Shown: piece by piece, positions 1 to 32,000 of the stretch
Layout: every line of letters begins with the position of its first letter
How positions within the stretch are numbered: position 1 is the stretch's first letter
Origin: a virus
IMG/VR virus record: IMGVR_UViG_3300045988_147533
Location: 1-32,000 of that record
DNA: 32,000 bases
Direction: 5' to 3' (one strand)
Notes under the pieces: generated by a model
What the model was told of the DNA's origin: nothing
The model's database searches: none
The model's input: only the letters and a program-made list of their open reading frames with translations
Program-made: the position numbers and the translations under genes

Positions 1-12
1 CTCTTCCGATCT
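1..12. other. Illumina TruSeq-type adapter remnant (CTCTTCCGATCT), not biological sequence
   Basis: Exact 12-nt match to the 3' end of the common adapter ...GCTCTTCCGATCT at the first bases of the window. Confidence 0.8.
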
Positions 13-14
13 TA

Positions 15-43
15 TTGACAATTTATAATTCTAGAGTTATAAC
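15..43 (+). promoter_or_regulatory. Sigma-70-type promoter for the left-end plus-strand operon
   Basis: TTGACA (15-20), 17-nt spacer, TATAAC (38-43); followed by an SD and GTG start at 87. Confidence 0.5.
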
Positions 44-86
44 TAAGGTGTCTTAAGAGACAAGCCACACGAAAGGAGGTGCAAAC

Positions 87-254
87 GTGGCAAAGTATAA
101 ACGTAGCAAACCGATGAAACGTCGCGATAGAAAAAAGCGCGAAAAAAAAGAGCGCATGATTTCGTACCTATCCAAAACGTTCGAAATTATATACACGCTC
201 TTAATCGGTGAAGCCCTCAAGCTTCTTGCTAAATATCTAAGTGACTTATTTTAG
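87..254 (+). CDS. Small 55-aa protein, Lys/Arg-rich N-terminus, hydrophobic C-terminus (hypothetical)
   Basis: GTG start 8 nt after GAAAGGAGGTG. Hand translation: MAKYKRSKPMKRRDRKKREKKERMISYLSKTFEIIYTLLIGEALKLLAKYLSDLF. Below the 60-aa cutoff of the ORF track. Confidence 0.4.
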   Translation: MAKYKRSKPMKRRDRKKREKKERMISYLSKTFEIIYTLLIGEALKLLAKYLSDLF

Positions 255-262
255 TCACTTAG
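237..262 (+). terminator. Perfect 9-bp hairpin overlapping the stop codon of the 55-aa ORF (weak terminator or RNA structure)
   Basis: CTAAGTGAC (237-245) / GTCACTTAG (254-262), 8-nt loop; no clear U-run afterwards. Confidence 0.3.
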
Positions 263-381
263 GTACTTATATTATACCACGTTTTAAAATATGGAACTAC
301 TAAAAATAGCGTTATTACTATCGTTAGCATTTAATGCATATCTTTTAAAGAAAATGATTGAAAAGTAAGGAGGTAAAGATT

Positions 382-882
382 ATGTGTGAAATGAAAGCTT
401 ATATCACAAATTTAGGTAAATACAATGAAGGTTGTTTAGTTGGTAAATGGATTGATTTCCCTATCGATGAGGATGATTTTGAAAGCGAACTTGAAAGCAT
501 TGGAGTGAAAGAAAACACAATGTATGAAGAGTGGTTTATCACTGATTATGATTGCTCATTGTTTGATATGTATGATGCATTTGGTGAATATCCTAACATC
601 GATGATATTAATGAAGTAGCTGAGGCTTTAGAGAATAATGAAGATGAATTCACTGCATTATTGGAAGTATGCAGCTATGAGGACGCTTTAAGATACTTAG
701 AAAGTGAAAACTATACTTTCTATCAAGGTATGTCGTTGGAAGATGTAGCGTATAAATTAGTTGAAGAATGCTATAATCTCCCAGAAATTGCGCAAAGATA
801 TTTTGATTATAAAGCGTTCGCGCGTGATCTAAGTTTTGACGGATATACTGAAACTTCAAGCGGAGTTATTTGTCTATGTTAA
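382..882 (+). CDS. ardA: ArdA-family antirestriction protein (DNA mimic, anti type I R-M)
   Basis: MKAYITNLGKYNEGCLVGKWIDFPID... and the acidic C-terminal ...YFDYKAFARDLSFDG match the Tn916 Orf18/ArdA pattern. AAGGAGG at 367-373 favours the ATG at 382 over the track's TTG at 358. Confidence 0.85.
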   Translation: MCEMKAYITNLGKYNEGCLVGKWIDFPIDEDDFESELESIGVKENTMYEEWFITDYDCSLFDMYDAFGEYPNIDDINEVAEALENNEDEFTALLEVCSYEDALRYLESENYTFYQGMSLEDVAYKLVEECYNLPEIAQRYFDYKAFARDLSFDGYTETSSGVICLC

Positions 883-901
883 CCCGCAAAGATCTTGACA
901 A

Positions 902-936
902 CATGAGCACTCTTAAAGTGCTCATGCTTGCTTTAT
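902..936 (+). terminator. Hairpin with T-rich tail downstream of ardA
   Basis: CATGAGCACT (902-911) / AGTGCTCATG (917-926), loop CTTAA, then CTTGCTTTATT. Confidence 0.5.
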
Positions 937-1042
937 TAAAATTCTACTTCTATATGTGTTTTGACGCATTATTAATAGGCTTGTTTTTAGGCTTATCAAA
1001 CATAATACTACCACTTATTTATTAATTGCAGGAGGTTAAACA

Positions 1043-1315
1043 ATGGAACTTTTAGAAATTAAATTATTGCATAAATACGCAAGAATCAGATCATATATGA
1101 ATGATCTTATTTCTGGTAATTTTGTTGTGTATGATTTTCTTTATGAGTGTTTAGCGGATCATATTGAATCATTTGTCTATGATCTTGCTTATATCGAAAA
1201 TGAAAAAGTTATACGCGTTTATTATGATCAACTTTTAGTTGATTCTAAACATGTAAGCAAAGAACTTTATACACTTGTTATAACTATTTTTGAAGATAAT
1301 GAATGGAGGTTTTAA
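1043..1315 (+). CDS. Hypothetical protein (90 aa)
   Basis: ATG preceded by GCAGGAGGT; tightly packed with downstream genes. Confidence 0.65.
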   Translation: MELLEIKLLHKYARIRSYMNDLISGNFVVYDFLYECLADHIESFVYDLAYIENEKVIRVYYDQLLVDSKHVSKELYTLVITIFEDNEWRF

Positions 1316-1317
1316 AA

Positions 1318-1563
1318 ATGAATAATAAAGAATATATCGAATCAGTAGAAAAAAAGCTGGATCAGCTCAACGCAAATAGTCTAAAGGCAAATAGCATAAT
1401 GCCTTTTTCAATAAATAGACATTTAAATGGGCTATATGATCTCAGTTATGGCATGGATGTAATTGCCTGGATGCTAAAGCCGCGTGAACTTTGGCAGCTT
1501 GTAAATACTTTATGTATTTTAAATATTTTAGGAGGGCTCAAAAATGACAATATGGAAGCGTGA
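1318..1563 (+). CDS. Hypothetical protein (81 aa)
   Basis: ATG at 1318 sits 8 nt after GGAGG (1305-1309), preferred over the track start at 1303. Confidence 0.6.
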   Translation: MNNKEYIESVEKKLDQLNANSLKANSIMPFSINRHLNGLYDLSYGMDVIAWMLKPRELWQLVNTLCILNILGGLKNDNMEA

Positions 1564-2131
1564 ACGAAACCATTTTAATTATTATGTTACAAATGAGCGA
1601 AAACAACCCCACATTTATGTTGAAGCGTTAGGAACTCCCAGCGCTTCAACTGAAAAAGTTTTAAAAGATCATGGTTTTAAGTTTGATTATAGCAAGTGCA
1701 TGTATGCAGCAGCTCAAACAAATGACTTAAGGTTGTTTGTTGCGCACGATCTTGACAAGCTTTTCAATTATGATATTCAAATATATTTCAATTCAGAAGC
1801 GAAAAAAGAACTTTTTGCGCCTGATATCCAGGAAATAAAAGATATTTGTTATCATTTTAAAATATACAAGTGTTATATTGATATTTTAAATAAGGATCTT
1901 TTTAAGATCTGTAAACCTGGATCAAAAAGCTTGCTTTTTACTTATAACACTAACTCTAAAACTATAGACGTTTTTAATAGAAATAAATTACAAGAAAGCT
2001 ATATATACAATAATTGTAAAATCGTAAAAATGATTGTTGAAAAAGATGCACCAAAAAAGAAAAAGAAAGCAACGCCAGCACTTACAGAACAACAAAAAAT
2101 TAATAAAATGCTGGAAGCATTTCCATTTTAG
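1544..2131 (+). CDS. Hypothetical protein (195 aa), Lys-rich C-terminal tail
   Basis: ATG after AGGAGGG; 20-nt overlap with the upstream gene. Confidence 0.65.
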   Translation: MTIWKRERNHFNYYVTNERKQPHIYVEALGTPSASTEKVLKDHGFKFDYSKCMYAAAQTNDLRLFVAHDLDKLFNYDIQIYFNSEAKKELFAPDIQEIKDICYHFKIYKCYIDILNKDLFKICKPGSKSLLFTYNTNSKTIDVFNRNKLQESYIYNNCKIVKMIVEKDAPKKKKKATPALTEQQKINKMLEAFPF

Positions 2132-2144
2132 GAGGTAAAAAAAT

Positions 2145-2702
2145 ATGGGATATATTGGCAATAAAATGAGTGAACGCGCTTATGAAGCGTATGAAAGTGG
2201 TGAAAAGCCACTTTCTAAATGGTCTAAATTTGATATTATAAAAAGCGTTTTAAACGTTAGAAATGACTTTCAAGAAAAAGAATTAAAAATTTATAGCAAA
2301 GAAGTTTTAAAAGTTTTTCTAATCTGTAGCTCATGGCATCATACCGGATCATATTTCAATGAAACTAATTTTTATAGTTTAGATTATGATGTTATCGAAC
2401 TTTCAAAAATTGAAATAATCCAGGCACTTGAAAAGAAGAAAAAAGATCTTGAAAAAGAGAAGAAAGAAAAAAAGATTTTAAAACTTCAAAAATGCATATT
2501 TTCATATATTGAATGGGCCGGAACGCGAAAACATCCAAAAGCAATAGAAAAAGAATCATACGGCATCATAAAAGGATCATGGATATACTACAAAGACGGC
2601 AAAAAGTCATTAAATGGTAAATATGTTCATGTGGTTAAAGAATTCGAACGTGCACCGCGTGGAACTGCTGCACTTTTCAAACAAATTGAAAAGGACTTGT
2701 AA
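2145..2702 (+). CDS. Conserved hypothetical protein of phage/conjugative-element type (N-terminal ...RAYEAYESGEKPLSKW..., SSWHHTG motif)
   Basis: GGAGG 9 nt upstream. From memory, the N-terminal motif recurs in plasmid/ICE/phage proteins that accompany ArdA; I cannot assign a family name. Confidence 0.7.
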   Translation: MGYIGNKMSERAYEAYESGEKPLSKWSKFDIIKSVLNVRNDFQEKELKIYSKEVLKVFLICSSWHHTGSYFNETNFYSLDYDVIELSKIEIIQALEKKKKDLEKEKKEKKILKLQKCIFSYIEWAGTRKHPKAIEKESYGIIKGSWIYYKDGKKSLNGKYVHVVKEFERAPRGTAALFKQIEKDL

Positions 2703-2716
2703 AAGTCCTTTTTTTA
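2687..2716. terminator. Bidirectional rho-independent terminator between the convergent plus and minus operons
   Basis: AAGGACTT (2691-2698) / AAGTCCTT (2703-2710), flanked by an A-run and a T-run. Confidence 0.7.
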
Positions 2717-3265
2717 ATGTCTTCTAATTTCTTTTTGAATCAGCTTTTTTTTGACTGGATTCGATGCGAAAAAGTTCATAAAAAGTTTAGTTTTAAACTC
2801 ATATTCTTTTTGATCTACTTCTTTAACGTCTAAAACTCTTTTGAATATTACTATTGCGATAAAGTTCGCAAACAAGTTTGCATCTTTTTCTATTTCCTGA
2901 TTCTCATAGTGTTTGCTGCTTGAATCCTTATAACTTTCAAATTCTTTTTTCCATATAGAAACGCTTCTTTCATCTATAGAAAACACTTTTTGATTCTTCT
3001 TATATACACATGCATATTGGTATAAATGTCTTATTTCATGTGCAAGATATATATAAACTAAACTACTATCTATGGATGTATTCAGGTTTACACAAATTAC
3101 ATTTTCTTTTGGGTATGATGTGCATATGCTTGTATCTTTTACTTGAAAAAGTTCTTTATTGACTGGTTTATGTTTAAGATCATAAACCTTATCATTTACT
3201 TTAAAGTAAACTTTTGGAATCTTTATATTTAATAGTGTGCATAGAAAACTTACATAATCATTCAT
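2714..3265 (-). CDS. ImmA/IrrE-like (DUF955-type) zinc metallopeptidase
   Basis: HEIRH (HExxH), then about 35 residues later ENQEIEKDANLFANF, matching the E-x-E-x-x-A-N-x-F-A signature of the ImmA/IrrE family. Confidence 0.6.
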   Translation of the reverse strand: MNDYVSFLCTLLNIKIPKVYFKVNDKVYDLKHKPVNKELFQVKDTSICTSYPKENVICVNLNTSIDSSLVYIYLAHEIRHLYQYACVYKKNQKVFSIDERSVSIWKKEFESYKDSSSKHYENQEIEKDANLFANFIAIVIFKRVLDVKEVDQKEYEFKTKLFMNFFASNPVKKKLIQKEIRRH

Positions 3266-3302
3266 GCATCCATTATATCTGAAAAACTTTATTTTGAAAA
3301 AC

Positions 3303-3590
3303 TTATTTATCTAGAATCAAAAAAACTTTTTCTAATTGTTCTTGAGAAGTTGGAAAAAACTTTTGAGATTCTTTTTCATGCTTGCATAGAATCGAACCGT
3401 CAAAAAACTTTTCCAGCAACTGATAAAACTTTTCTTTCTTCACATAATAAACATAATTCACAGACACATCTTCATCATCATGCGCATTGTATTCAAAAGC
3501 TTTTTCAACCATCTTAGAACAAATAACACTAATCTGTACATTATCATACTTCACAAAAACTTCTTTATAAGAAAACTTATTTTCGTCCAT
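3303..3590 (-). CDS. Hypothetical 95-aa protein, paralogue of the C-terminal domain of the upstream gene (KFF-motif domain)
   Basis: ATG at 3590 preceded by TAGGAGTGATGAA, preferred over the track's TTG at 3623. Aligns by eye with residues 101-208 of 3613-4239. Confidence 0.65.
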   Translation of the reverse strand: MDENKFSYKEVFVKYDNVQISVICSKMVEKAFEYNAHDDEDVSVNYVYYVKKEKFYQLLEKFFDGSILCKHEKESQKFFPTSQEQLEKVFLILDK

Positions 3591-3612
3591 TTCATCACTC
3601 CTAAAAAACTTT

Positions 3613-4239
3613 CTACATATCAAACAATACTCTTAAAAACTTTGCATATTCTTTTTCTGATTTCAGATAAAACTTATTACATCCATCCATGATATCTTCA
3701 TAGTTGCAAGTCTCAATTTCATTATCTAAAAACTTCCTATATAAACTTTTGAATTTGGATTTACAAATATAATGCTCAACTACTAGTATATCATTCTCAT
3801 AATGACACCTTTTAAACTCTTCATGTGCCATATAAGCACATACAATATTATCTCCATATTGTACAAATAAACTTTCTGTATCACGAATCAGAAAAAACTT
3901 TTTCACTTCTGTTAAAAACTTTGGTATTTTGTATTTCATTTTCTTTACTCCTAAAAACTTTTTCTCAGATACACTTTTTCTTCCTTCTATAGTAAATTCA
4001 CCAATTCTTTCTGAATACATTTCAATACTTCCGGAATATCCATTATTACTGTTTGTTGTAAAATATGCAGTACTGTCTGCATAACATGTATTTGTATCTC
4101 CTTCCGGGTCTAGTGTAAATGATTTAAAACCTTCCCATGCGACAGGTGTACCATACGTGATATCTCCACCTTCTCCATGCTCAATAGGAACTACATAAAC
4201 ATTTTTAATTCCATATTTAACTTTGTTTGCATCTTCCAC
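3613..4239 (-). CDS. Fusion protein: N-terminal phi13-type major-tail-protein-like fragment (about 100 aa) plus a 108-aa KFF-motif domain
   Basis: GTG at 4239 preceded by TAGGAGTGATATT. The N-terminus VEDANKVKYGIKNVYVVPI...ITYGTPVAWEGFKSFTLDPEGDTNTCYADSTAYF...GYSGSIEMYS follows the tail-tube N-terminal consensus. An internal ATG at 3939 has its own TAGGAGTAAAGAAA. Confidence 0.65.
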   Translation of the reverse strand: MEDANKVKYGIKNVYVVPIEHGEGGDITYGTPVAWEGFKSFTLDPEGDTNTCYADSTAYFTTNSNNGYSGSIEMYSERIGEFTIEGRKSVSEKKFLGVKKMKYKIPKFLTEVKKFFLIRDTESLFVQYGDNIVCAYMAHEEFKRCHYENDILVVEHYICKSKFKSLYRKFLDNEIETCNYEDIMDGCNKFYLKSEKEYAKFLRVLFDM

Positions 4240-4249
4240 AATATCACTC

Positions 4250-4525
4250 CTATTTATCTGCAATCGTTTCTACAAAACAATTATAATAAACATATCTTTT
4301 CCCATCATAATCAAATTTTACATATCCACCATCATTTGTTTCAATATCAATTCTTCCCTCATAGCTAGCTATAATTTTTCCATCTGCTGTATACACATTG
4401 ATTATTCTATTCAATCCACCATTCAAATCTGATTTTATATCAGTACCCCAACGATCCAAAGAAGCACATCCAAATAATGAAATGCTAATCATTCCAACCA
4501 TTAATAATTTGTATAATTTATTCAT
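4250..4525 (-). CDS. Small lipoprotein (91 aa)
   Basis: Signal peptide with lipobox ISLFGC; SD AAGAGGAA. Shares the EGRIDIETNDGG...GKRYVYY motif with the 4666-5067 product. Confidence 0.75.
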   Translation of the reverse strand: MNKLYKLLMVGMISISLFGCASLDRWGTDIKSDLNGGLNRIINVYTADGKIIASYEGRIDIETNDGGYVKFDYDGKRYVYYNCFVETIADK

Positions 4526-4587
4526 TTTATTCCTCTTTTCTATGTCCGATAACTATATATTATCAGACCAACCGCAAACCTTTTAAA

Positions 4588-4604
4588 AGCCTAGTAAATA
4601 GGCT
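4588..4604 (-). terminator. Weak hairpin terminator between the two lipoprotein genes
   Basis: AGCCTA/TAGGCT stem, followed on the minus strand by TTTTAAAAGG. Confidence 0.35.
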
Positions 4605-4665
4605 ACTTTGTAACACTTTTCTAAAATAAAAACTTTATGAATTTTTGAGTCATGCTGTAATGTGT

Positions 4666-5067
4666 TTATTTATTTGTATCTTCTACGTTAATCAAGCCAT
4701 GTTCAATCGTTTCTTTAGCAGGAAAGAATGTTATTTTATATCCATACGGATTTTCTTTTACCGAATCGGTCTGAATACTTGTATATGTTACATCTTTTGA
4801 TAAATGTGCATAAAACAATTTATATTTATCTTTTCCAGTTTTAATCGTTACATTCAAATCGCCATCACTATCTGTTTCAATAGATATTTTTCCTTCAACA
4901 GAAAACAACGGTTCATTTGTTCTAGTATTTAATGCCACAACCTTTCTCGATATTTTAAAGTTGTTTGCATCCACTCTTAAATTATGATTAGCTGTATCTG
5001 ATTCTTGGCATCCTACCAAACCTAGACACATTGTCATTCCTAAAATTGCGCTTAATATTTTTTTCAT
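4666..5067 (-). CDS. Lipoprotein (133 aa)
   Basis: MKKILSAILGMTMCLGLVGC lipobox; start overlaps the stop of the upstream gene (ATGA). Confidence 0.8.
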   Translation of the reverse strand: MKKILSAILGMTMCLGLVGCQESDTANHNLRVDANNFKISRKVVALNTRTNEPLFSVEGKISIETDSDGDLNVTIKTGKDKYKLFYAHLSKDVTYTSIQTDSVKENPYGYKITFFPAKETIEHGLINVEDTNK

Positions 5068-5531
5068 TTGTTCAAATCTCCCATAACGAGCTTTTTAAGC
5101 TCTTTCTTCATTGCGTAATACATTTTCATTCTGCTACAAAACTTTTCTCCTGAAAGCTTCTCAAACGACTCTCCGTTGACATAATGACGTTTCATATATA
5201 AACGAATATCATCATCTGGAATAAGATCAATAATTGTTTCAATTTCTCTCATCTTTCCTAAGATAAGATTCTTATCATCTTCAAGCACTTTTTCTTTTGA
5301 AATAAACTTTACAAGAACATCATTTGTAATATCCTTGTTCTTTTTTGAATCCAACCTTTGTTCAAATGATGGAGATTTTGGATCTGAAAATTCTTTTTTT
5401 CGAACCTCCAAATCCTTTAAAATTCCATCCAACGATTTAAACTTTCTTTCATAGATTTTGAACATTTCAAGCTTTTTAATTAATGCATCCACTTGAACAT
5501 CTACATATTCTTCATAATCCGTTTTACTCAT
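5064..5531 (-). CDS. Sigma-70 region-4-like phage late transcription regulator (RinA/ArpU/DUF1492-like)
   Basis: C-terminal ...IPDDDIRLYMKRHYVNGESFEKLSGEKFCSRMKMYYAMKKELKKL resembles the region-4 HTH of DUF1492/RinA-type activators; N-terminal coiled coil. Confidence 0.5.
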   Translation of the reverse strand: MSKTDYEEYVDVQVDALIKKLEMFKIYERKFKSLDGILKDLEVRKKEFSDPKSPSFEQRLDSKKNKDITNDVLVKFISKEKVLEDDKNLILGKMREIETIIDLIPDDDIRLYMKRHYVNGESFEKLSGEKFCSRMKMYYAMKKELKKLVMGDLNK

Positions 5532-5539
5532 TTTCTCTC

Positions 5540-5686
5540 CTATTTAATTTCTTCAATTTCCTCAATGCTGCATGATGGAAATTTCATATAGAATTTATAC
5601 ATTGCCATGCTTTTCGATTCCTCCTGGACTTCCATCACACAAATATTATTGTCTTTGATATATTTAATTCTGTATTTCTTTAACAT
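5540..5686 (-). CDS. Small hypothetical ORF (48 aa)
   Basis: Hand-translated MLKKYRIKYIKDNNICVMEVQEESKSMAMYKFYMKFPSCSIEEIEEIK; fills a gap in the operon; SD weak. Confidence 0.3.
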   Translation of the reverse strand: MLKKYRIKYIKDNNICVMEVQEESKSMAMYKFYMKFPSCSIEEIEEIK

Positions 5687-5716
5687 CTTTATATTCTAAC
5701 CTTTCCAATCGCTTAA

Positions 5717-5878
5717 TTATTTTGTTTCATCAAAATCATCATACAAATATTCTTTATTCACCTTATTTTTTAAATCCATAATTTCCAGCCTTTGTGCTGC
5801 AATCATATTTTCTAAACTTGTAATCTGTGATACCATTGCACAACTACATACAATCAATCCGCATATAGCACCTAACAT
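5717..5878 (-). CDS. Small hypothetical ORF (53 aa), hydrophobic N-terminus then coiled coil
   Basis: Hand-translated MLGAICGLIVCSCAMVSQITSLENMIAAQRLEIMDLKNKVNKEYLYDDFDETK; SD weak. Confidence 0.3.
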   Translation of the reverse strand: MLGAICGLIVCSCAMVSQITSLENMIAAQRLEIMDLKNKVNKEYLYDDFDETK

Positions 5879-5900
5879 CAATCCTATTGTAAACTACATA

Positions 5901-6047
5901 TTAGAAACCACTCTCCAACGGATTACCTGATGGTGCGTTCAATCCATATAATGTTGCATATACAATAACTGCATATACAACATAAAGTACTGTACAAGTA
6001 ATAATAGGATCCAGATTCTTAATAATTGCTTTTTTAATTCTATTCAT
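5901..6047 (-). CDS. Small membrane protein (48 aa)
   Basis: ATG overlaps the stop of 6040-6336 (GATGAATAG). MNRIKKAIIKNLDPIITCTVLYVVYAVIVYATLYGLNAPSGNPLESGF has one TM segment. Confidence 0.4.
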   Translation of the reverse strand: MNRIKKAIIKNLDPIITCTVLYVVYAVIVYATLYGLNAPSGNPLESGF

Positions 6048-6336
6048 CATCATTTAAATATTTAAACTCTTTCATTAACTCATCCTTTGTTTTTTCAAAC
6101 TCTGATTCGATTTGTTTCTGTACATCAATCTTAGTTTGTTTAAACCATTTCTTTTTGAACTTAGTAACTGCTTCACGATAACGTTTTTCATCACAGTCAC
6201 ACGACTGCCACCACTCTAAATCATGCAGCACTTTAACTAAATCTTTCATCATTTCATTTAATTGAGAATCGTACATTCTATTAACACATTCTTCTTCAAC
6301 TCTGCAATACACATAGCTGTAACTTCCACCACTCAT
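6040..6336 (-). CDS. Hypothetical phage protein (98 aa)
   Basis: The MSGGSYSYVY...LHDLEWWQSCDCDE pattern looks like a recurrent phage protein of unknown function. Confidence 0.7.
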   Translation of the reverse strand: MSGGSYSYVYCRVEEECVNRMYDSQLNEMMKDLVKVLHDLEWWQSCDCDEKRYREAVTKFKKKWFKQTKIDVQKQIESEFEKTKDELMKEFKYLNDDE

Positions 6337-6351
6337 TAGTTAATCTCCTTT

Positions 6352-6765
6352 TCAATCTATAATCTTACTTCCGCAATTTGGACAGTATTTGGGTTTGTAA
6401 CTATAAAAGAATTCTACTCTATTATCTTCGTCGCTTTTAACTCCTGTTTGGTGTACTGATATGAATCCACAATTAGAACATTTAAATACATCCCTTGAAT
6501 CATATTCTAATTTGTTAGTGCAAGTTTCTTCTTCAAGCCAACCAAATTCTATGCATTGTTGGATGATCGCCATTAATTCATTTACCGATATGGCTTCTGT
6601 TGTTAATTTATTTCCTAGTACATCTTTAACTGCAATACGTCTAGATACTTTATCAAACGCAATATCTCGTGATGCAGTAGTATTTACGCATCCATACGTT
6701 ATAAGAGTGTTTGGTGTTATTTTTTTTGTGAATCCTAACCTTCTAAACATTTCTTCAGCAGTCAT
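6352..6765 (-). CDS. Hypothetical protein with C-terminal zinc ribbon
   Basis: CSNCG...(x31)...CPNCG; SD present. Confidence 0.7.
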   Translation of the reverse strand: MTAEEMFRRLGFTKKITPNTLITYGCVNTTASRDIAFDKVSRRIAVKDVLGNKLTTEAISVNELMAIIQQCIEFGWLEEETCTNKLEYDSRDVFKCSNCGFISVHQTGVKSDEDNRVEFFYSYKPKYCPNCGSKIID

Positions 6766-6949
6766 ATCCTTCTCCTAATTTACTAATAGCCAAATACTCA
6801 ACATTTTGTTGACCTTCATACCAATCATTTAACCAACTTATAGTATCCTCGCAACCATTCCCTACAATGTATATTCCTGTTTCAAATTGCTCAATTACAA
6901 AACGATTAACATCTTGTAATTGCGTTCTATTCTGACTTCTAATCCACAT
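6755..6949 (-). CDS. Hypothetical protein (64 aa)
   Basis: In-operon ORF with short overlaps to both neighbours. Confidence 0.55.
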   Translation of the reverse strand: MWIRSQNRTQLQDVNRFVIEQFETGIYIVGNGCEDTISWLNDWYEGQQNVEYLAISKLGEGYDC

Positions 6950-6950
6950 C

Positions 6951-7466
6951 CTAGTACCCCTCTTTCAATCTTTGATAATTCACTTTGTTTTTGTCACAAT
7001 ATGCTTTGTGCACATCTTCAATCGTGAAACCTAAGTATTCAGTGATTGCGATTAGTCTTTCAAGCTTATTTGAGTTAATGCTCGTTAAATCTGCAAGTAA
7101 ATAAATAATTCCAGTTTTAAAAACTTTAATTTCACAAAAATATGTTATAGCATTGTAAATCATTTGTTCTTCTGCTCTCAACTCCTCTTCACCACTATCG
7201 AAATGATTTTGATAACTTAAAACGAAATGCCAAATATCAACTAATTCTCCTAGAACTTTTTCTTCATCAACAGGTGCTTGAGATTTCTTCCACCAACACC
7301 AATCACCTTTTAATTCGTGCGTAAGTTCTCCAACTTCATCTAGAATTGCGAAGCCAAGATTTTTTTTGTCAATTTCAGTTAATCCGTATTCTTTCATAAT
7401 TGCTTCATCTAGTTTAGCTTGCATTTGAAGCATTTCTTTGATTAATTTAATATCTTTACTTGTCAT
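6951..7466 (-). CDS. Dimeric (all-alpha) dUTPase / MazG-like NTP pyrophosphohydrolase
   Basis: ...LDEVGELTHELKGDWCWWKKSQAPVDEEKVLGELVDIWHFVLS matches the dUTPase_2 pattern seen in Firmicutes phages. Confidence 0.6.
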   Translation of the reverse strand: MTSKDIKLIKEMLQMQAKLDEAIMKEYGLTEIDKKNLGFAILDEVGELTHELKGDWCWWKKSQAPVDEEKVLGELVDIWHFVLSYQNHFDSGEEELRAEEQMIYNAITYFCEIKVFKTGIIYLLADLTSINSNKLERLIAITEYLGFTIEDVHKAYCDKNKVNYQRLKEGY

Positions 7467-7477
7467 TTTTTCTCCTT

Positions 7478-8041
7478 TTATTCATCTATGAAATTTATGA
7501 TATATGTTAATTCTTTCATTCTTTCTACAGCTTCTTCTTTAATGAATTGCAAAGTTGCTCTCTTTGCTACTTCAAAACTTTTAAACGGATGAAAAATGCT
7601 TATTGTTTCTCCAAAATACAATGTGAAATATACATAAAACAATTTTGGCTCACTCTCGTTAAGTTGGTGTTCTTCAATTGTTGCGATTGCTCTGTTTTCA
7701 TTGTAGGCATCAGTCAATACAAGTCGTGTTATTTTTTGCCCGTCAAATCTATTTTTTTCCCATATTAATTTCATATTTTTCTCTTCAGCAACAACTTCAG
7801 AATTGTTATCTTCTGTTCTTCTATGTTTTACATGATCTTTACCGGTTAATAATCTATATAAACAAGCTTTTCCACCAAAGAAATCAAGATTTCTAGAATC
7901 AAGTTCCATTGATCGTACCTCTAAATCTTCATTAAAATACAGTGGGTTGCATTGTTTAAACTCACCATCCACATCAAATGCATCGTATGGTTCTAAACCA
8001 TTTTCTTCCATGAATTTTTCAATAACTTTCAGTTCAATCAT
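7478..8041 (-). CDS. Hypothetical protein (187 aa)
   Basis: Long ORF co-linear with the operon. Confidence 0.7.
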   Translation of the reverse strand: MIELKVIEKFMEENGLEPYDAFDVDGEFKQCNPLYFNEDLEVRSMELDSRNLDFFGGKACLYRLLTGKDHVKHRRTEDNNSEVVAEEKNMKLIWEKNRFDGQKITRLVLTDAYNENRAIATIEEHQLNESEPKLFYVYFTLYFGETISIFHPFKSFEVAKRATLQFIKEEAVERMKELTYIINFIDE

Positions 8042-8244
8042 TCTATTTCCTCCAATTCCAATTCTTCACATATTTTTACGATTATAAATCCATTCCTTGA
8101 ACGCTTTATTTTTCCTTTTTTCTGTTTGGAACACATGGATCTAAATGTATTGATTGTTGTTTCTAAAAACGATGCACATTCATCTTCTGTTCCAATACAA
8201 GCAGGAAGATCATCCTTGTATATTCCATATATTTTTCGTGCCAT
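8038..8244 (-). CDS. Hypothetical protein (68 aa)
   Basis: 4-nt overlap with both neighbours. Confidence 0.6.
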   Translation of the reverse strand: MARKIYGIYKDDLPACIGTEDECASFLETTINTFRSMCSKQKKGKIKRSRNGFIIVKICEELELEEIE

Positions 8245-9035
8245 CAGTTCAACCTGTAATTCTTTCCAGGCTCTTTCTCAATTTCAAAGAAGAAACCATT
8301 GCACTTTTCAACAATTCGTCCAACTACCGCTTCATTTATATCAATCATTTCCTGGCTTGTTCTTTCGCAAGATATGATTGTCTGCATGTTGTTGTTATAG
8401 CGATAATCAATCAAATCAAAGATTGCTTTATCATCCAACCGATTGGCACTAGATTTGAACAAATCATCTAGATACAATATTTGAGCGTGTTTAGCACGTT
8501 CTAGAAGCGAATAATCAAAGTTGCTAATAGAATTGCTCAACTCAATGTATCTGACGTACAGAACACGTTTATTTTGTTCTAACAACCAATTACTGATTCC
8601 TGAACATAAATGTGTTTTCCCACATCCACTCTGCCCTAAAAACATCAACCAATTGCAAGGCATGTGTTCTGCAAAATTGTTTTTACAATCCTGGATGTAA
8701 TTCACTGCCATTTTTTTGATTGCTTCTTGCCAAGGATCAGATGCAACGAAATCATTGATTCGTTTGTTCAACAAATCTTTTAAACCACTGTTCTTTTTGT
8801 TCTTCTCAATCCATTCACTGCGATAGCTTGATAGTTTCTCACAATCATTTCTTTTTGAACAGAACACCTTTGTTGGAGCCACCAAGTATTTCCCGTCATA
8901 ATAAGCTGGCTTTTCCCAAATACCACAAGCGCCTGCTGCCATGCATTTATCACAATCACTTTGACAATGTTTGCTTTTAAGATATTTCTTATTTTCTTCA
9001 TTTTGTTTTTGGATTATTTCACTAACTGACTGCAT
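8244..9035 (-). CDS. DnaC/DnaI/IstB-like AAA+ helicase loader with Cys-rich N-terminus
   Basis: Walker A GQSGCGKTH, Walker B ILYLDDLF; directly downstream of the replication organizer. Confidence 0.8.
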   Translation of the reverse strand: MQSVSEIIQKQNEENKKYLKSKHCQSDCDKCMAAGACGIWEKPAYYDGKYLVAPTKVFCSKRNDCEKLSSYRSEWIEKNKKNSGLKDLLNKRINDFVASDPWQEAIKKMAVNYIQDCKNNFAEHMPCNWLMFLGQSGCGKTHLCSGISNWLLEQNKRVLYVRYIELSNSISNFDYSLLERAKHAQILYLDDLFKSSANRLDDKAIFDLIDYRYNNNMQTIISCERTSQEMIDINEAVVGRIVEKCNGFFFEIEKEPGKNYRLN

Positions 9036-9838
9036 TACATCTTCATTCCTTTCGTGATTACAAAATTATTTGTTTTTTGTTTAGGTGCTACACTGTTCAG
9101 ATAAATTTCAAACTTAGATCCAAACAACGTGTCAGGCCTTAGATACTTGTTCATCTCTGTATCGTTTACCCATTCAGAAGCTTTAACATCAATCACAAGC
9201 TTAAAGTCTTCTAACCTGAATCCTTCATTCCATCTAGCATGAATCTTATCTCTAGCAATACGATTACTGTGTTTGTAATTCTTTGAACATTTAGAATTCA
9301 AGTAGTCAATAATTTCAACATAAGGGATTGTTTCTGATGCTGATAAATCAGTGTCGTCGGAACTTTCTTTTATATTTCTTTTATTATTAACTGTGTATAT
9401 AAATGTTTTATTAACTGTCTTACATTGGACAGATTTGTCTTTTGTACATTGGACAGATTTGTCTTTTGTACATTGGACAGATTCGGTAAATGCATTGGAC
9501 AAATTTGACCAATCGATAGATAAAGCATTTTTTAACTTTTCACCCATATTTCCAAATGCATACCAGCTTGTTTGATTCCAAGGATTTTCATTGTAATTTC
9601 CTTTGATAATCAAATCTTCATCAACCATTTTTTGAAGTATTCTTTGTATCTTTTTTTCACTCCAGTATGGAAATAATTTTTTAAATCCTTTTGCAGAATT
9701 AAACGTCCAATATTTTCCATCATGATAGTTGTTCTCATTTGCTTCATTTTTGTTGATCCAAAAACAAAACATATCAAATACAACAGCAACTTCAATGCCG
9801 TATTTGTCGGCTATTGCTATTTCAAAACTGTGTTTCAT
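9035..9838 (-). CDS. Phage replisome organizer / DnaD-like replication initiator
   Basis: C-terminus ...IIDYLNSKCSKNYKHSNRIARDKIHARWNEGFRLEDFKLVIDVKASEW...YLRPDTLFG resembles the conserved phage C-terminal (DnaD-like) domain; contains internal iterons. Confidence 0.75.
   Translation of the reverse strand: MKHSFEIAIADKYGIEVAVVFDMFCFWINKNEANENNYHDGKYWTFNSAKGFKKLFPYWSEKKIQRILQKMVDEDLIIKGNYNENPWNQTSWYAFGNMGEKLKNALSIDWSNLSNAFTESVQCTKDKSVQCTKDKSVQCKTVNKTFIYTVNNKRNIKESSDDTDLSASETIPYVEIIDYLNSKCSKNYKHSNRIARDKIHARWNEGFRLEDFKLVIDVKASEWVNDTEMNKYLRPDTLFGSKFEIYLNSVAPKQKTNNFVITKGMKM
9421..9507. repeat. Iterons (candidate phage ori) inside the replication organizer gene
   Basis: TACATTGGACAGATTTGTCTTTTG repeated exactly at 9421-9444 and 9445-9468, a partial copy from 9469, and a degenerate CATTGGACAAATTTG at 9493-9507. 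Encodes SVQCTKDK SVQCTKDK SVQC. Confidence 0.75.
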
Positions 9839-9847
9839 TTTCTATCC

Positions 9848-10111
9848 TCAGAATAAAGATATTTCCTTTATTCTCTTTCTATTCCTTGTATTACTTTTAG
9901 GTAGAATCACAAGCTCATAAAGCCTTCCATCTACCTGATAAAAACGATATGCTGCGCCCATACAAGAAACATTTTTTCTTTGTACAAGAGCAGCTGTTAT
10001 TCCATATTCTTCAAACATATAAACTGCATCAGGAACTACTTGTAGAACCTCATATGATGCATCTTGAACCTGAATAACATCACCTGTATTAACATTAGTA
10101 GCTTCTTTCAT
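9848..10111 (-). CDS. Hypothetical protein (87 aa)
   Basis: In-operon ORF upstream of the replication genes. Confidence 0.6.
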   Translation of the reverse strand: MKEATNVNTGDVIQVQDASYEVLQVVPDAVYMFEEYGITAALVQRKNVSCMGAAYRFYQVDGRLYELVILPKSNTRNRKRIKEISLF

Positions 10112-10158
10112 TTGTTTCTCCCGTCTTGTATAATTACCTCGAAAAGAGGTATATTTAT

Positions 10159-10614
10159 ATGAAATTTGATAATGATTTTTTAAATTTTGCTTTTAAATCG
10201 TGGCCTTATATAGTCGCGATAATTCCATCTTGTGTAGGTCTTCATAAGTCGATTAAAGTAGAGAAGATTATAGCTGCTAATAAGGAACTTGTTTCTATAA
10301 TCCAAGCTCGTGCACCAATAACTCAAGAGCATTACAATCAATTATTAAGTGTTTTCTCTGATTATTTAGACAAAGCCGCTAGATACAATAAATCAGATGG
10401 GAACAATTTATTAAAAGAATATCGTGCTGCCTATTTAAAATCTCGAATGCTAATCCCTGACAAAGAACTACATGATAAAATGGATGAAGTTAATACGTAT
10501 TTGTTAGATCAAAAAAAATCTAATATTAAATCTGAATTGGAATTCACTAACATGTTGGCTGATATATCTGACTCTTTCAGTCTCTTTCTAGATCAAATTG
10601 AAAGAAACGCATGA
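10159..10614 (+). CDS. Moron-like membrane-anchored protein (151 aa), opposite strand to the surrounding operon
   Basis: ATG at 10159 about 9 nt after AAGAGG, preferred over the track's TTG at 10126. N-terminal hydrophobic segment WPYIVAIIPSCVGL, then a helical domain. Confidence 0.6.
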   Translation: MKFDNDFLNFAFKSWPYIVAIIPSCVGLHKSIKVEKIIAANKELVSIIQARAPITQEHYNQLLSVFSDYLDKAARYNKSDGNNLLKEYRAAYLKSRMLIPDKELHDKMDEVNTYLLDQKKSNIKSELEFTNMLADISDSFSLFLDQIERNA

Positions 10615-10784
10615 CATAGTCCAAATGCACATGCATGTCCATAGAACCAAAATTTAAAATACTGAATTGCATGTCTTTTAATATCGTCTTTATAGTCATA
10701 GAATTTAGTTTCAATAAATTCTAAAATAAAAGCAATCATGATTGTTACCATCCATCCAACATCCACTGCAAATTTAACATCCAT
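10593..10784 (-). CDS. Small membrane protein (63 aa)
   Basis: Starts 9 nt after the recombinase stop; two hydrophobic segments; 22-nt convergent overlap with 10159-10614. Confidence 0.4.
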   Translation of the reverse strand: MDVKFAVDVGWMVTIMIAFILEFIETKFYDYKDDIKRHAIQYFKFWFYGHACAFGLCHAFLSI

Positions 10785-10792
10785 TCCATTCC

Positions 10793-11692
10793 CTACTTTC
10801 TTTTCGCATAACTCAATGATTCAAGATTTTGCTTTTTCATTTTCCTTGTTGTACGAACATAGATTCTTGTAGTTTCTAAACTAGAATGTCCAAGAATATC
10901 CGCAAGTTCTGCAATCGCATTTTCACCATTCTGCATCAAATACTGAATTGCAAACAAATGCCTAAATGCATGAGGATGTACTTTACCAAGCTTAATTCCT
11001 CTGCATTTACCAGCAATCATCTTTAAGTCTCTAGACAACACACGAGCGTTTACAGGACTTTCCTTATCAGAAGATGTAAATATACACCCTTCTTCAATTC
11101 TGTTGTCCTTGCAGTATTTAAGGAGCTCTCTGCGCAAGTCTGAACGTAGAATGATTCCTCTTCCTTTTCCTTTGTTCATAACATACACATTGTCATCCGT
11201 TACTGCTTCTACGGTAAAGAACTGTAGTTCACTCAAACGAATTCCCGTATACCCAAACACCTTCATGATCTCGTATAAGTCCATACGATTGATTTCACGA
11301 GCTTTTTTCAATAGTCTTTGAAATTCATTAGGCTCTAGAATATCATCCAAAGAATCATCTTTCTGGACTCTTACGTTCTTCAATAAATTCTTTGAATAAT
11401 ATTTCTTTAGCTTAAGAAAATTAAAATCATCATCTGAATCTATGATCTCTGCATATTTAATAAATTTATTAATGATCACAATATAGTTGTTTACTGTACT
11501 GATTTTATAATCGTGCAGCAGTTTATCTTTAACACCAACTATATCTGATTTTGTGATTTTACAATCAGGCAATGAGTTAACAAACAAAGTAGCAACATGC
11601 TTGTATTTACGAATGGTATTCTTACTTTTCTCATCCGCTGTTTCTTCTTCAATAAACCCGTCAATTTTTGTTTGTAACTCATCCTTAGTCAT
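10793..11692 (-). CDS. Second tyrosine recombinase (XerC/XerD-like, 299 aa)
   Basis: RLSELQ (Arg), HPHAFRHLFA (H-x-x-R) and LGHSSLETTRIYV (His...Tyr) catalytic signature. Confidence 0.85.
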   Translation of the reverse strand: MTKDELQTKIDGFIEEETADEKSKNTIRKYKHVATLFVNSLPDCKITKSDIVGVKDKLLHDYKISTVNNYIVIINKFIKYAEIIDSDDDFNFLKLKKYYSKNLLKNVRVQKDDSLDDILEPNEFQRLLKKAREINRMDLYEIMKVFGYTGIRLSELQFFTVEAVTDDNVYVMNKGKGRGIILRSDLRRELLKYCKDNRIEEGCIFTSSDKESPVNARVLSRDLKMIAGKCRGIKLGKVHPHAFRHLFAIQYLMQNGENAIAELADILGHSSLETTRIYVRTTRKMKKQNLESLSYAKRK

Positions 11693-11693
11693 A

Positions 11694-11915
11694 TTACTTA
11701 ACTACCTGGATGATTGTTGTAGCCAACACCTTAGTAGATAAAAATACGCATACATTCAATGCAAGTAAAGCAATATTAATGAATGTACATGCAACTACAT
11801 AATTCTTTGACTTAGGTTTCAAATTAATGAGATACTTGTCATCTAACTTATTAATCTCATAGTTATCGAAATCAGGAATTACCCAATTTTCTTTTTCTTC
11901 TTTTTCTTTTGTCAT
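11694..11915 (-). CDS. Small membrane protein (73 aa), translationally coupled to the recombinase
   Basis: ATG at 11915 after AAGGAG. MTKEKEEKENW...VVACTFINIALLALNVCVFL TM segment. Stop lies 1 nt from the recombinase start. Confidence 0.55.
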   Translation of the reverse strand: MTKEKEEKENWVIPDFDNYEINKLDDKYLINLKPKSKNYVVACTFINIALLALNVCVFLSTKVLATTIIQVVK

Positions 11916-11956
11916 TTTATATCTCCTTATATAATAGTGATTGGAGGTGAAAAGAA

Positions 11957-12172
11957 ATGTCTGATTTAGCAATTCAAATCCACAAATTTGTCCTAGCAAA
12001 CAAATATGGTGAGTATGATACATGTAGCATAGAAAATGTTTCCAAAGCGTTCCCAGGCTATACAGAATATCAACTCGAAGATGCTCTTGATGAACTAGCA
12101 GACCGTGGATATATCAAATCAAACGGTCATTTTGACGCTACTGATTATTACACTTTCACAGTGTTGAAATAA
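11957..12172 (+). CDS. Small acidic protein (71 aa), possibly winged-helix; divergent from the recombinase operon
   Basis: GGAGGTG SD; own terminator at 12184-12210; only a 41-bp divergent intergenic region containing TATAAT. Confidence 0.6.
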   Translation: MSDLAIQIHKFVLANKYGEYDTCSIENVSKAFPGYTEYQLEDALDELADRGYIKSNGHFDATDYYTFTVLK

Positions 12173-16867: not shown

Positions 16868-17965
16868 TTATAACAACTTATTCATCATATCTACAATGCT
16901 CTTGTCTTTTGTATCAAACCAGTGTGCATATGTATTGTGCAATGTTTCAACCGTGTCTCCTAAGCGCTTGGCTATATCAAAATCTGAGAATCCAGCTCCT
17001 GCCATGTTATTAATTAGGAATGATGCATGTGAATGTCTAAAATCATGAATTCTTATTTTAGGTAATCCATCATCTTTTTCTTTTGCCTTATTATATGCAT
17101 CATCAAATCTTCTTTGTACTGTCTGAGGTGATATTGGTTTATAATATCCAAACACGAATTTATCTTTTGTGAAATCATCCCATTTAGAACATTCTAAAAA
17201 CCATTCTCGAAGCATTTTAGACAATGTATTAGGCATTGTGATAGTTCTATAGCTATTGTTTGTTTTCGGTGGTGTAAGCCATTTATTAGGGTCTTTCTCT
17301 TTGTATCTGTATGTTTTGTTGATATCTATCGTTTGCTTCCTAAAATCAATGTCCTTCCATTGTAGAGCCATTGCTTCACCTTTTCGTAATCCCATATAGA
17401 ATAAAACAGAATAAAAACATTTCATCATTTGTTCATCTACTTCTTCAATAAATAAATCAAAATCATATTGCTGCCATATTGTCATTTCTTCTTTTCTTTC
17501 ATTCAATCTAAGATCACGTTTTACATATGTCATTGGATTGGTTGGAATGTATTCAGAAGTAACACCAAATTTATATAGCTTATTTAAAAAGAAATATATT
17601 CTTGATACGTATGCTTTTGAATATTTCTCATCAAATTTGTTGATCAAGTTTTGCATTTGTCTTTTATCTAGAAAATCAATATCTTTCATTTCCTTAGAAA
17701 GAACATTGTATAAATATTCATCTGATTTTAGCGTTGATTCTTTTACATACTTTTTATTATATTCTTTAAAAGCTTTATATAGTCTGTCAAAATTCATATC
17801 TGATGGAAGCATAAAGAAATCTTTCCTAAATTCAACCTCAGCTTTTTGTGCTTCCCATTTAGAATCAAAACCACGCTTACGATATCTCTTTATACATTTG
17901 CCATCTTTATATATTTTTCCAGCAAACATATATTTTCCTGTCTTCTTATCTAATTCCACTGCCAT
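16868..17965 (-). CDS. int: Phage tyrosine integrase (365 aa)
   Basis: N-terminal SAM-like/arm-binding region; RKGEAMALQW (Arg), HDFRHSHASF (H-x-x-R), LGDTVETLHNTYAHW (Tyr). Confidence 0.9.
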   Translation of the reverse strand: MAVELDKKTGKYMFAGKIYKDGKCIKRYRKRGFDSKWEAQKAEVEFRKDFFMLPSDMNFDRLYKAFKEYNKKYVKESTLKSDEYLYNVLSKEMKDIDFLDKRQMQNLINKFDEKYSKAYVSRIYFFLNKLYKFGVTSEYIPTNPMTYVKRDLRLNERKEEMTIWQQYDFDLFIEEVDEQMMKCFYSVLFYMGLRKGEAMALQWKDIDFRKQTIDINKTYRYKEKDPNKWLTPPKTNNSYRTITMPNTLSKMLREWFLECSKWDDFTKDKFVFGYYKPISPQTVQRRFDDAYNKAKEKDDGLPKIRIHDFRHSHASFLINNMAGAGFSDFDIAKRLGDTVETLHNTYAHWFDTKDKSIVDMMNKLL

Positions 17966-18003
17966 TTTTTGTGCCCTCTTATATGTCCATAATATGCAAA
18001 AAA

Positions 18004-18051
18004 GGGGTATAATTCAATATTTTAATATCAAATTATACCCCAATATACCCC
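18004..18051. promoter_or_regulatory. Repeat cluster in the lysin-integrase gap (candidate attP arm/core sites)
   Basis: Inverted repeat GGGGTATAATT (18004-18014) / AATTATACCCC (18031-18041); direct ATACCCC at 18035 and 18045; a related GTACCCC near 18203. Confidence 0.4.
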
Positions 18052-18060
18052 AAGGCAAAT

Positions 18061-18084
18061 AAAAAAGCCTTTAAATAAAGGCTT
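18061..18084 (-). terminator. Terminator of the late/lysis transcript
   Basis: AAGCCTTTA...TAAAGGCTT hairpin, followed on the minus strand by TTTTTTATTT. Confidence 0.65.
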
Positions 18085-18275
18085 AAATTTCAATGGAGCA
18101 GATGAGGGGATTATATAAATACCTCATATCTATTGATATTTGATGTTATTTACATCGTTATCTACGTGTTTTGATAACACTTTGTTGTTTTGTACCCCAA
18201 AATGTACCTCACTGCTTCACGCAAGAAAGATAATACAGTATAAACTATATTATGTCAAACACTTTTTGAATTTTT

Positions 18276-31315: not shown

Positions 31316-32000
31316 TTCCCCATGATTTCAACATATCTCGAATTGATATAATTTCTTGTACAGTATCTGTAACAACATTTCCATCCAATTGCATAGGTTG
31401 TAGATTGATTGTGATATTGCTATCCAATATTGCATTTAAAGCACTCGTTAAATTGTCCATTCTTTTGTAAATACCATCCAAGTTTAAATTGTATGCCGTA
31501 GAATTAGAACGCGATACTGTACCACCCATAATAGATGTAGTAGCATCACTAGCCACTGCATATGCGCTTGTATCAGCCAACGCTGCAATAGAATCAGCAC
31601 TCATAGGTGCAATATCAGAATCAACAACAGGTCGAGATAAATTATCTAAAGAATGTTTTTCAGTTTTGTGTACAGTTTTCTTTATAGTTGTAATAATAAT
31701 AGGATCTTTAGCGGCTGCTTTTGCGTTATGGATAGCTTTTTGAACTTTTTTTGCATAATCTATAGCTGCTTGCGCATACGGTTCATAAGCTTTCACTAAT
31801 GCACTTCCGCCTGTTTTTCCCATAGAAGTAGAAGCTACCTTTGCGTTGGATTTTCCATCACCAAGACTATCTCCAATATCTTTGGATTTTTTTGAAGATT
31901 TATCTTTAGCTTTATCTAATTCCTTTTCTAATTCGTCAACTCCGCCTTTTCCCAAAGCTTTCATTGCATCGGAAACGGATATTTGATTACTAGCGATTGC
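31302..32000 (-). CDS. Tape measure protein, C-terminal part (5' end lies beyond the window)
   Basis: The frame stays open from 31964 to the window edge; Ala/Lys-rich helical sequence directly upstream of Dit. Confidence 0.7.
   Translation of the reverse strand, partial: AIASNQISVSDAMKALGKGGVDELEKELDKAKDKSSKKSKDIGDSLGDGKSNAKVASTSMGKTGGSALVKAYEPYAQAAIDYAKKVQKAIHNAKAAAKDPIIITTIKKTVHKTEKHSLDNLSRPVVDSDIAPMSADSIAALADTSAYAVASDATTSIMGGTVSRSNSTAYNLNLDGIYKRMDNLTSALNAILDSNITINLQPMQLDGNVVTDTVQEIISIRDMLKSWGNGGS

Follow-up and report, generated by a model that had tools for sequence, protein, structure and literature searches.

The stretch of DNA analysed in this study (hereafter the window) comprises positions 1 to 32,000 of the IMG/VR virus record IMGVR_UViG_3300045988_147533. 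It has a G+C content of about 31%, and most of its genes are encoded on the minus strand. When this strand is read from position 32000 downward, the end of the tape-measure protein (TMP) gene is followed by Dit, tail and fibre genes, a holin gene, an endolysin gene (19352-18279) and an integrase gene (17965-16871), and then by a repressor/lysogeny module, replication genes (Phg_2220_C, DnaA-like ATPase) and a dUTPase gene. Further down the same strand lie the genes for a DUF1492/ArpU-like regulator (5531-5067), a VG64-like small lipoprotein (5067-4669) and a DUF5052-like lipoprotein of 91 amino acids with the lipobox LFGC (4250-4525, coding to 4253). The open reading frame (ORF) studied here comes next, followed on the minus strand by a gene of 95 codons (3303-3590, coding from 3306) and a metallopeptidase-like gene of 183 codons (3265-2717). 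The minus-strand operon ends with a terminator-like hairpin (2689-2712, minus strand) between convergent gene sets, and the genes at positions 358-2702, beginning with ArdA, have the opposite orientation. A promoter scan showed no enrichment above shuffled sequences.

Since contig L003 is 100% identical to the window over 14.2 kb, and contig L005 is 100% identical to window positions 32000-20518 (11.5 kb), the complete genome was estimated to be about 42 kb in size and circularly permuted. On these identical contigs, HNH, terminase, portal, protease, capsid and connector genes come after the ArdA island, and then the real major tail protein (MTP) gene, the tail chaperones and the TMP gene. The names attached to near-identical proteins suggest that we are dealing with a temperate siphophage or prophage of Holdemanella biformis from the human gut. 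A megablast search of window positions 1-12000 against GenBank phages returned no match, and a contig scan of species-representative genomes with the protein described below yielded no confirmed locus. The DUF5052-like lipoprotein gene forms the fixed left border of a variable slot, which is a hypervariable accessory site flanked by the late-regulator/lipoprotein genes on one side and the ArdA island/terminase on the other.

In the window, the slot is occupied by an ORF of 208 codons. It runs from a GTG at 4239 to 3613 (stop codon at 3615-3613) and its strand is minus, which corrects the preliminary description of this DNA. The Shine-Dalgarno (SD) sequence AGGAG (4247-4251, minus strand), located 7 nt 5' of the GTG, overlaps the TAG stop codon of the upstream lipoprotein gene. 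The ORF is a chimera in which the start of one gene, a piece of an MTP gene, an internal piece of the first gene, a read-through ribosome binding site (RBS) and a further complete gene follow each other in one frame, all on the minus strand. Codons 1-3 (GTG GAA GAT, 4231-4239) are shared in alignments with a gene that we refer to as gene X. Codons 4-74 (213 nt, 4018-4230) constitute the MTP-derived segment, as judged from profile matches and nucleotide alignment, and the last three of these codons (72-74, 4018-4026) coincide with a microhomology, ATTGAAATG, that the MTP gene and gene X have in common. Codons 75-95 (YSERIGEFTIEGRKSVSEKKF, 3955-4017) come from the interior of gene X (..GYIEMHSERTGEFTIAPRKSVSEKSF..), approximately its codons 148-168. 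The sequence AAAAAGTTTTT (3953-3963) marks a deletion junction between AAGTTTT repeats. Codons 96-100 (LGVKK, 3940-3954) correspond to the RBS region of the last gene, with AGGAG at 3952-3948 and an 8-nt spacer to an ATG at 3939. From this ATG the C-domain gene extends to the end of the ORF (3613-3939, 108 amino acids); it is free-standing in relatives, intact, and predicted with confidence to fold. The preliminary description had already noted that the frame continues into a 108-residue domain with its own SD sequence and ATG at 3939, and that this domain is unrelated to the preceding part and duplicated. Indeed, the 95-codon gene that follows is a distant tandem paralog of the C-domain gene (BLASTP, 29% identity over 87 residues, E=3e-6).

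The N-terminal part of the ORF had been described as an orphan fragment of a phi13-type tail-tube protein, and this identity is borne out by database comparisons. The family profile TIGR01603 (maj_tail_phi13) matches the fragment with 37.3 bits, which is above its curated cut-off of 35.2, over profile positions 1-69 of 190. Likewise, phrog_88 (‘major tail protein’) matches residues 1-75 with E=6.4e-15 over profile positions 17-90 of 291, and in tblastn searches annotated MTP genes were matched in 194 phage records with at most 51% identity over about 70 residues. The C-terminal half of the ORF was covered by none of these 194 records. Two details needed adjustment: the peptide quoted as residues 5-95 or so corresponds to residues 6-76, and the similarity does not continue to about residue 100 but ends sharply at residue 74 (..GSIEM), the next 21 residues being derived from the third gene, gene X.

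As had been anticipated, the phage's own MTP gene lies outside the window; it was located on L005 (4860-5504, 214 amino acids) adjoining the chaperone and TMP genes. Its product matches TIGR01603 with 107.8 bits over profile positions 1-163, and phrog_88 with E=5.5e-45. The comparison of the fragment with this protein, which the preliminary description had proposed, revealed only 75% nucleotide and about 70% amino acid identity. In contrast, the fragment is far closer to a foreign gene, the P0068-type MTP gene (L027, from position 10001), with 92-93% nucleotide and 85% amino acid identity and exact matches of up to 54 nt. In a sister phage, the P0068 gene is flanked by the connector genes and by the tail chaperones/TMP. 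The identity between the fragment and the P0068-type gene runs from the start codon to ...ATTGAAATG, and then ends abruptly at GAAATG. The genuine MTPs among the relatives consist of 214-218 residues and have only residues 1-74 in common with the fusion (about 70% for P0103). One contig of 43 kb contains both situations, with the fusion P0017 in the accessory slot and the MTP P0103 in the tail module.

The fragment is thus homologous to the N-terminal third of the phi13 family MTPs (TIGR01603/phrog_88), but neither the helix nor the remainder of the beta-sandwich is included. It is also located between the lipoprotein genes and the ArdA island instead of in the tail module, in a phage that carries a complete MTP gene elsewhere. 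For a functional tube subunit one would expect coverage of the whole domain, a place in the tail module, and purifying selection with retention of invariant residues, none of which was observed for the fragment. A sister MTP was modelled with AF2. The shallow alignment led to a low-confidence model (pLDDT 53), for which the Foldseek matches were mostly tail tube proteins, although weak (E >= 0.005, TM 0.2-0.4), and the model was taken as no more than soft support and as a rough guide to secondary structure. According to this low-confidence model the fragment would stop short of the helix and of the second beta-sandwich half, and a predicted hairpin at about residues 48-61 falls within it. Searches of PDB sequences with the MTP and the MTP profile gave nothing meaningful. 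A protein alignment that included full-length MTPs spuriously paired their C-terminal halves with the C-domain and was left out of the modelling.

The origin of the remaining pieces became apparent from two relatives, L022 and L024, in which the slot is occupied by gene X (phrog_4525), a membrane-protein gene of about 190 codons. In these loci the upstream lipoprotein gene, the SD sequence, the spacer and the first three codons, GTG GAA GAT, are the same as in the window. Moreover, the ‘linker’ of the fusion occurs inside gene X, in the sequence ...GGATATATTGAAATGCATTCAGAAAGAACTGGTGAATTTACTATAGCACCAAGAAAAAGTGTATCTGAGAAAAGTTTTT.... This shows that a 213-nt patch of a P0068-like MTP gene replaced codons 4 to 147 or so of gene X. 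At the 5' joint, the microhomology TGGAAGAT is shared with the start of the MTP gene (ATGGCAGAT) and lies at the start codons of both genes. The joints of the patch thus lie at TGG(A/C)AGAT and ATTGAAATG, microhomologies of 8-9 nt. A second event, a deletion between AAGTTTT(T) repeats, removed the last 25 or so codons and the stop codon of gene X, by which the remnant was abutted to the RBS of the C-domain gene. In the alignments, all three junctions fall on direct repeats of 7-9 nt. The double joint may have arisen by microhomology-mediated template switching or by illegitimate recombination with a co-replicating phage of the P0068 type. The frame at the deletion junction is set by a run of T residues: the window has five (AAAAAGTTTTTAGGAG) and is in frame, while L012 has four, and its frame stops after ...SEKKF. 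Programmed frameshifting at the AAAAAGTTTTT run was considered and rejected, because the heptamer is non-canonical and the alleles merely vary in the length of the T-run.

Homologues of the whole fusion form 31 protein clusters with 67-90% identity in database searches, and in Logan/ENA the alleles of this locus number several hundred. It could be argued that a chimeric ORF in metagenomic data, in a region that is repeat-like relative to the MTP gene, is an artefact of assembly or sequencing. The probability of this is negligible, because the gene was recovered in identical form from independent contigs and samples, including L003 with its 14.2 kb of identity, and because the 31 clusters come from IMG/VR, ENA, Logan and NCBI and include H. 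biformis isolate genomes. The idea that the whole feature is an assembly chimera is rejected by this recurrence across datasets. In close relatives with flanks that are about 90-99% identical, the slot holds gene X, a different gene of 105 codons, or nothing at all, and it was found empty or otherwise filled in L011, L014 and L019-L025. Pfam searches returned nothing for the fusion, the C-domain, dn95, gene X or the alternative slot gene.

To judge whether the fragment is maintained, we counted substitutions among alleles. Across 14 distinct alleles of the fragment plus linker, there were 12 synonymous and 38 nonsynonymous distinct variants, which corresponds to an omega of about 0.8. This value is compatible with 1 (P=0.49) and incompatible with 0.25 (P=1e-4). 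For the three flanking genes, counted in the same manner, omega was 0.19-0.33 (Fisher P=0.005 for the fragment versus the pooled flanks), and pooled pairwise estimates of omega were concordant with this difference. When genuine MTPs were compared with each other over the same codons, omega was 0.15-0.29, while the comparison of the fragment with the donor-type MTP gave 2-4 synonymous and 13-14 nonsynonymous differences (omega 0.9-1.9). It should be noted here that an omega near 1 does not separate neutrality from a mixture of positive and purifying selection, and that omega is inflated among very close sequences.

The individual alleles also show signs of decay. Residues that are invariant in MTPs were substituted (G10E, A37F, W34/35L, Y67/68C and S68/69F), and the widespread P0029 and P0021 alleles share a deletion of 13 codons by which the invariant residues A53, D54, Y58 and T61 are lost. 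In L013 there is a stop codon at E36 plus a frameshift, and the T-run frameshift of L012 results in a stub of 95 residues that was found on 6 contigs, including a 222-kb contig of H. biformis (WP_118324235.1). A stop at codon 110 in L007, L008 and L016 leaves an ORF of 109 codons that is present on 4 contigs, and a form of 35 residues is present on 3 contigs. Since each of these truncated forms recurs on 3 to 6 contigs, they are not one-off errors. The preliminary description had stated that degeneration of the fragment to a pseudogene in related phages would refute its reading as a tube-derived factor, and such degenerating copies were indeed encountered in L013, L012 and the H. biformis genome.

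Nucleotide diversity across the locus has its minimum in the fragment (0.012-0.027), as compared to 0.05-0.09 upstream and 0.13-0.27 downstream and in the C-domain. This low-diversity fragment is found together with diverged flanks and with different alleles of the C-domain. We read the low diversity as a sign of youth and of recombinational shuffling of a neutral patch, but it could also result from recent selective spread.

The latter view touches on the idea, already put forward in the preliminary description, that the fragment serves as a decoy, an anti-defence factor or the bait of a sensor. DSR2 is known to be triggered by tube proteins (PMC11087589, among others), and Avs16 senses the beta-hairpin of the tube (PMC13581612). 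An early- or middle-expressed half tube might accordingly act as a decoy for tube-sensing immunity of the DSR2 or Avs16-like type, or as a dominant-negative tail poison against P0068-type phages from which the phage's own MTP would escape. Several of our observations would fit this: the much greater similarity to the foreign than to the own MTP, the ORF that is open with a good SD sequence in most alleles, the low-diversity island on varied backgrounds, and the location in an accessory region adjoining ArdA. Nonetheless, we consider this scenario unlikely. Of the 190 profile positions the fragment spans only 69, no folding is predicted for it, its omega is about 0.8, and residues that MTPs keep invariant were lost. 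The deletion in the widespread P0029 and P0021 alleles falls in the predicted hairpin region, and no sequence constraint was found on the surface that would do the mimicking. Alleles with nonsense codons or frameshifts were seen on several contigs, and close relatives do without the fragment. Furthermore, a piece that binds a sensor would be expected to trigger this sensor rather than to block it. Lastly, PADLOC gave no match for the fusion protein or for any other protein of the accessory region. The idea from the preliminary description therefore received no positive support. What the locus has in common with DSAD1/DSR2 and the tube-sensing Avs16 systems is the theme alone, namely a tube-related sequence beside an anti-restriction gene. 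DSAD1 itself is not a tube fragment, and in the present case neither evidence of selection nor a complete sensor-binding surface nor a match to a defence or anti-defence profile was found. The chimeric ORF as a whole could also be imagined as a weapon or shield, in which a competitor-type half tube poisons the polymerisation of P0068-type tails or titrates a host sensor while the own MTP is spared. The low-diversity island would then reflect a recent sweep, and the omega near 1 an arms race. We regard this as quite improbable. A tube mimic of this kind, if real, would represent an inter-phage or anti-immune strategy of a new type, and the evidence weighs against it.

The patch might also be of use as DNA, as a 213-nt homology cassette for exchange with the MTP genes of co-infecting phages through which the tube N-terminus could be swapped. 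The exact matches of up to 54 nt to the P0068-type gene would be suitable for this, and the locus L029 (P0115) has the expected appearance, since the lipoprotein gene is followed by a fusion-type start and a full-length MTP ORF with the crossover inside the shared region. However, L029 is a single metagenomic contig of 1.9 kb that was seen once, and it is explained either by chimeric assembly across the shared repeat or by rare recombination, possibly as a dead-end deletion derivative. As the direct repeats are separated by about 10 kb, recombination between them would remove the packaging and head genes, and the neutral decay of the patch speaks against its maintenance for this purpose. A role as a cassette is, therefore, very improbable.

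Based on the present data, the ORF is very probably a mosaic scar, in which a neutral patch of an MTP gene was left within gene X ahead of an unrelated gene. A recombination scar was the null explanation in the preliminary description, and it is favoured here because donor, recipient and junctions were identified, omega is about 0.8, and decayed alleles exist. Scars and gene remnants produced by illegitimate recombination at the mosaic junctions of temperate phages, as in mosaicism of the Hendrix type, are a classic finding (cf. PMC2327257, PMC3945230). The present locus resembles them in its abrupt boundaries, in its joints at repeats of 7-9 nt, in its position in a non-essential accessory slot, in its presence or absence among near-identical relatives, and in the neutral decay of the remnant. 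The hallmarks of a scar are thus all present at this locus, with donor and recipient sequences that have abrupt boundaries at short repeats, a neutral substitution pattern, and relatives in which the copy is disrupted or absent. What is unusual is that both ends of the patch lie within a single recipient gene and that both are in frame. In addition, the donor, the recipient and the intermediate and decayed states can here all be recovered from public data. The kind of feature is therefore already known, while this instance is new. It provides a clean natural record of how the insertion of a patch at microhomologies, together with slippage, first builds and then erodes mosaic genes in temperate phages of the gut.

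The leader of 100 codons in front of the C-domain is open and in frame in 8 of the 11 unique loci, with representatives in the 31 protein clusters, which speaks against the interpretation as a scar. Because this leader is mostly open, in frame and preceded by a good SD sequence, the 208-residue fusion protein is probably made. Ribosomes that start at the intact SD/GTG of gene X (4239) would then produce the C-domain with a poorly structured leader of about 100 residues, and initiation at the internal SD/ATG (3939) would produce the native protein of 108 residues. AF2 modelling of the fusion agrees with this picture, as the C-domain had a pLDDT of about 90, and residues 1-106 remained below 50 and were unstructured. 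The tube fragment itself would have no maintained function, and the leader would be inert.

An inert leader contrasts with the possibility that it modulates the C-domain gene, by translational coupling, by masking the internal RBS, or by extending the N-terminus of the C-domain protein so that its activity or localisation changes. The frame that is open through the RBS in most alleles is compatible with such modulation, as are the T-run at the junction that toggles the frame and two other fusions in the relatives. In P0039 a membrane protein reads through the same ‘GVKKM’ into the C-domain, and in P0032 the loss of a stop codon joins the C-domain to the next paralog. On the other hand, free-standing C-domain genes are the commonest state (P0033-P0067), no sequence constraint was detected in the leader, and neutral slippage predicts the toggling equally well. 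We therefore think it improbable that the leader has a modulating role. A third odd fusion, P0021, has a dn95-like start ahead of the tube fragment.

The unit under selection at this locus would be the C-domain gene, a fast-evolving and tandemly duplicated accessory gene. Its ORF with its own start was intact in 26 out of 26 unique sequences, with an omega of 0.55. Many related proteins of 114-144 residues consist of the C-domain alone and begin at the same methionine (MKYKLPKFLTE...), and the relatives carry further paralogous copies. The C-domain has no Pfam or PHROG match. No structure in PDB or BFVD matched the fusion model in Foldseek with an E-value below 0.06, so that the C-domain fold remains an orphan. 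According to the model, the C-domain has a confidently predicted orphan alpha/beta fold, and its gene is the functional unit that is conserved at this locus. Because this gene evolves rapidly, is duplicated in tandem, contains expanded internal repeats and lies beside ArdA, we conjecture that it is an accessory gene for host interaction or counter-defence. This selected gene for an orphan fold of about 110 residues beside the ArdA island represents a better target for functional work than the fragment in front of it.

In public databases, PGAP and IMG label the truncated alleles as ‘phi13 family phage major tail protein’. The fragment is partial, misplaced and unconstrained, and the phage has its own MTP elsewhere; this name therefore mis-annotates a gene fragment. 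Stubs labelled in this way could mislead the typing of prophages, and they could likewise mislead searches for the triggers or decoys of tube-sensing defence systems.

The accessory position between homologs of the DUF5052-like lipoprotein gene (4253-4525) and the C-domain gene is hypervariable in the relatives that we compared (loci L009, L011, L014, L017 and L019-L025). Depending on the locus, this slot holds gene X, which encodes a phrog_4525 membrane protein, an unrelated gene of 105-114 aa (e.g. L019:2643-2987), tandem duplicates of the C-domain gene, or nothing. A further junction within the same slot is provided by the P0021 allele, which occurs in L030 (4001-4630), L031 and L032, this type of allele being found on 6 contigs. 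Here, a dn95-like start (MDENKFSFKEF...), resembling that of the paralog next to the C-domain gene, lies ahead of the tube fragment and takes the place of the first ~17 codons. One 1.9-kb contig, L029, is the sole basis for yet another arrangement (L029:936-1830), in which the DUF5052-like lipoprotein gene precedes the fusion-type start and an entire major tail protein ORF of 202 aa (P0115). The crossover is located within the shared 213-nt region, and the contig represents either genuine recombination or a chimera created during assembly.

In P0032, a homolog of window positions 3303-3939, the C-domain gene is joined to the next paralog via loss of its stop codon, and the fusion passes through the RBS of that paralog (..FDRKFFRSDEM..). 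Read-through fusions across RBSs are recurrent in the C-domain gene array. Expanding repeats of 'KHINIGDELNKLFM' are present at the C-domain N-terminus in the homologs P0042, P0050 and P0062. In public databases, truncated stubs of 95 and 109 aa (WP_118324235.1 and IMG entries) carry the pipeline name 'phi13 family phage major tail protein'; these are gene fragments that have been mis-annotated.

The small proteins encoded at 4669-5067 and 4253-4525 on the minus strand have lipoprotein signal peptides (..LVGC and ..LFGC, respectively), and both may have a role as surface or exclusion proteins of the prophage. The former matches Pfam Phage_VG64 and phrog_478, and since it is a lipoprotein, the PHROGs label 'recombination directionality factor' is unlikely to apply. 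On the opposite strand to the target operon, an island (358-2702, plus strand) starts with the anti-restriction gene ardA (Pfam E=1e-36), followed by four genes without a family match (1043-1315, 1303-1563, 1544-2131 and 2145-2702). The two gene sets converge on a common hairpin (2689-2712). Relatives retain this island, which may serve in anti-defence, with the accessory slot on one side of it and the HNH/terminase genes on the other.

Directly after the endolysin gene, on the same minus strand, lies the integrase gene (16871-17965; both genes together, 16871-19352). Because phage genes are present on both sides, and because an independent 42,171-bp contig contains the same sequence in a different permutation, the sequence arrangement identifies the source of the window as a circular or circularly permuted phage genome of ~42 kb, rather than a prophage with host flanks. 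In addition to this integrase, a second gene of the tyrosine recombinase family (10793-11692, minus strand; 299 aa; Phage_integrase E=5e-18) is located within the replication module.
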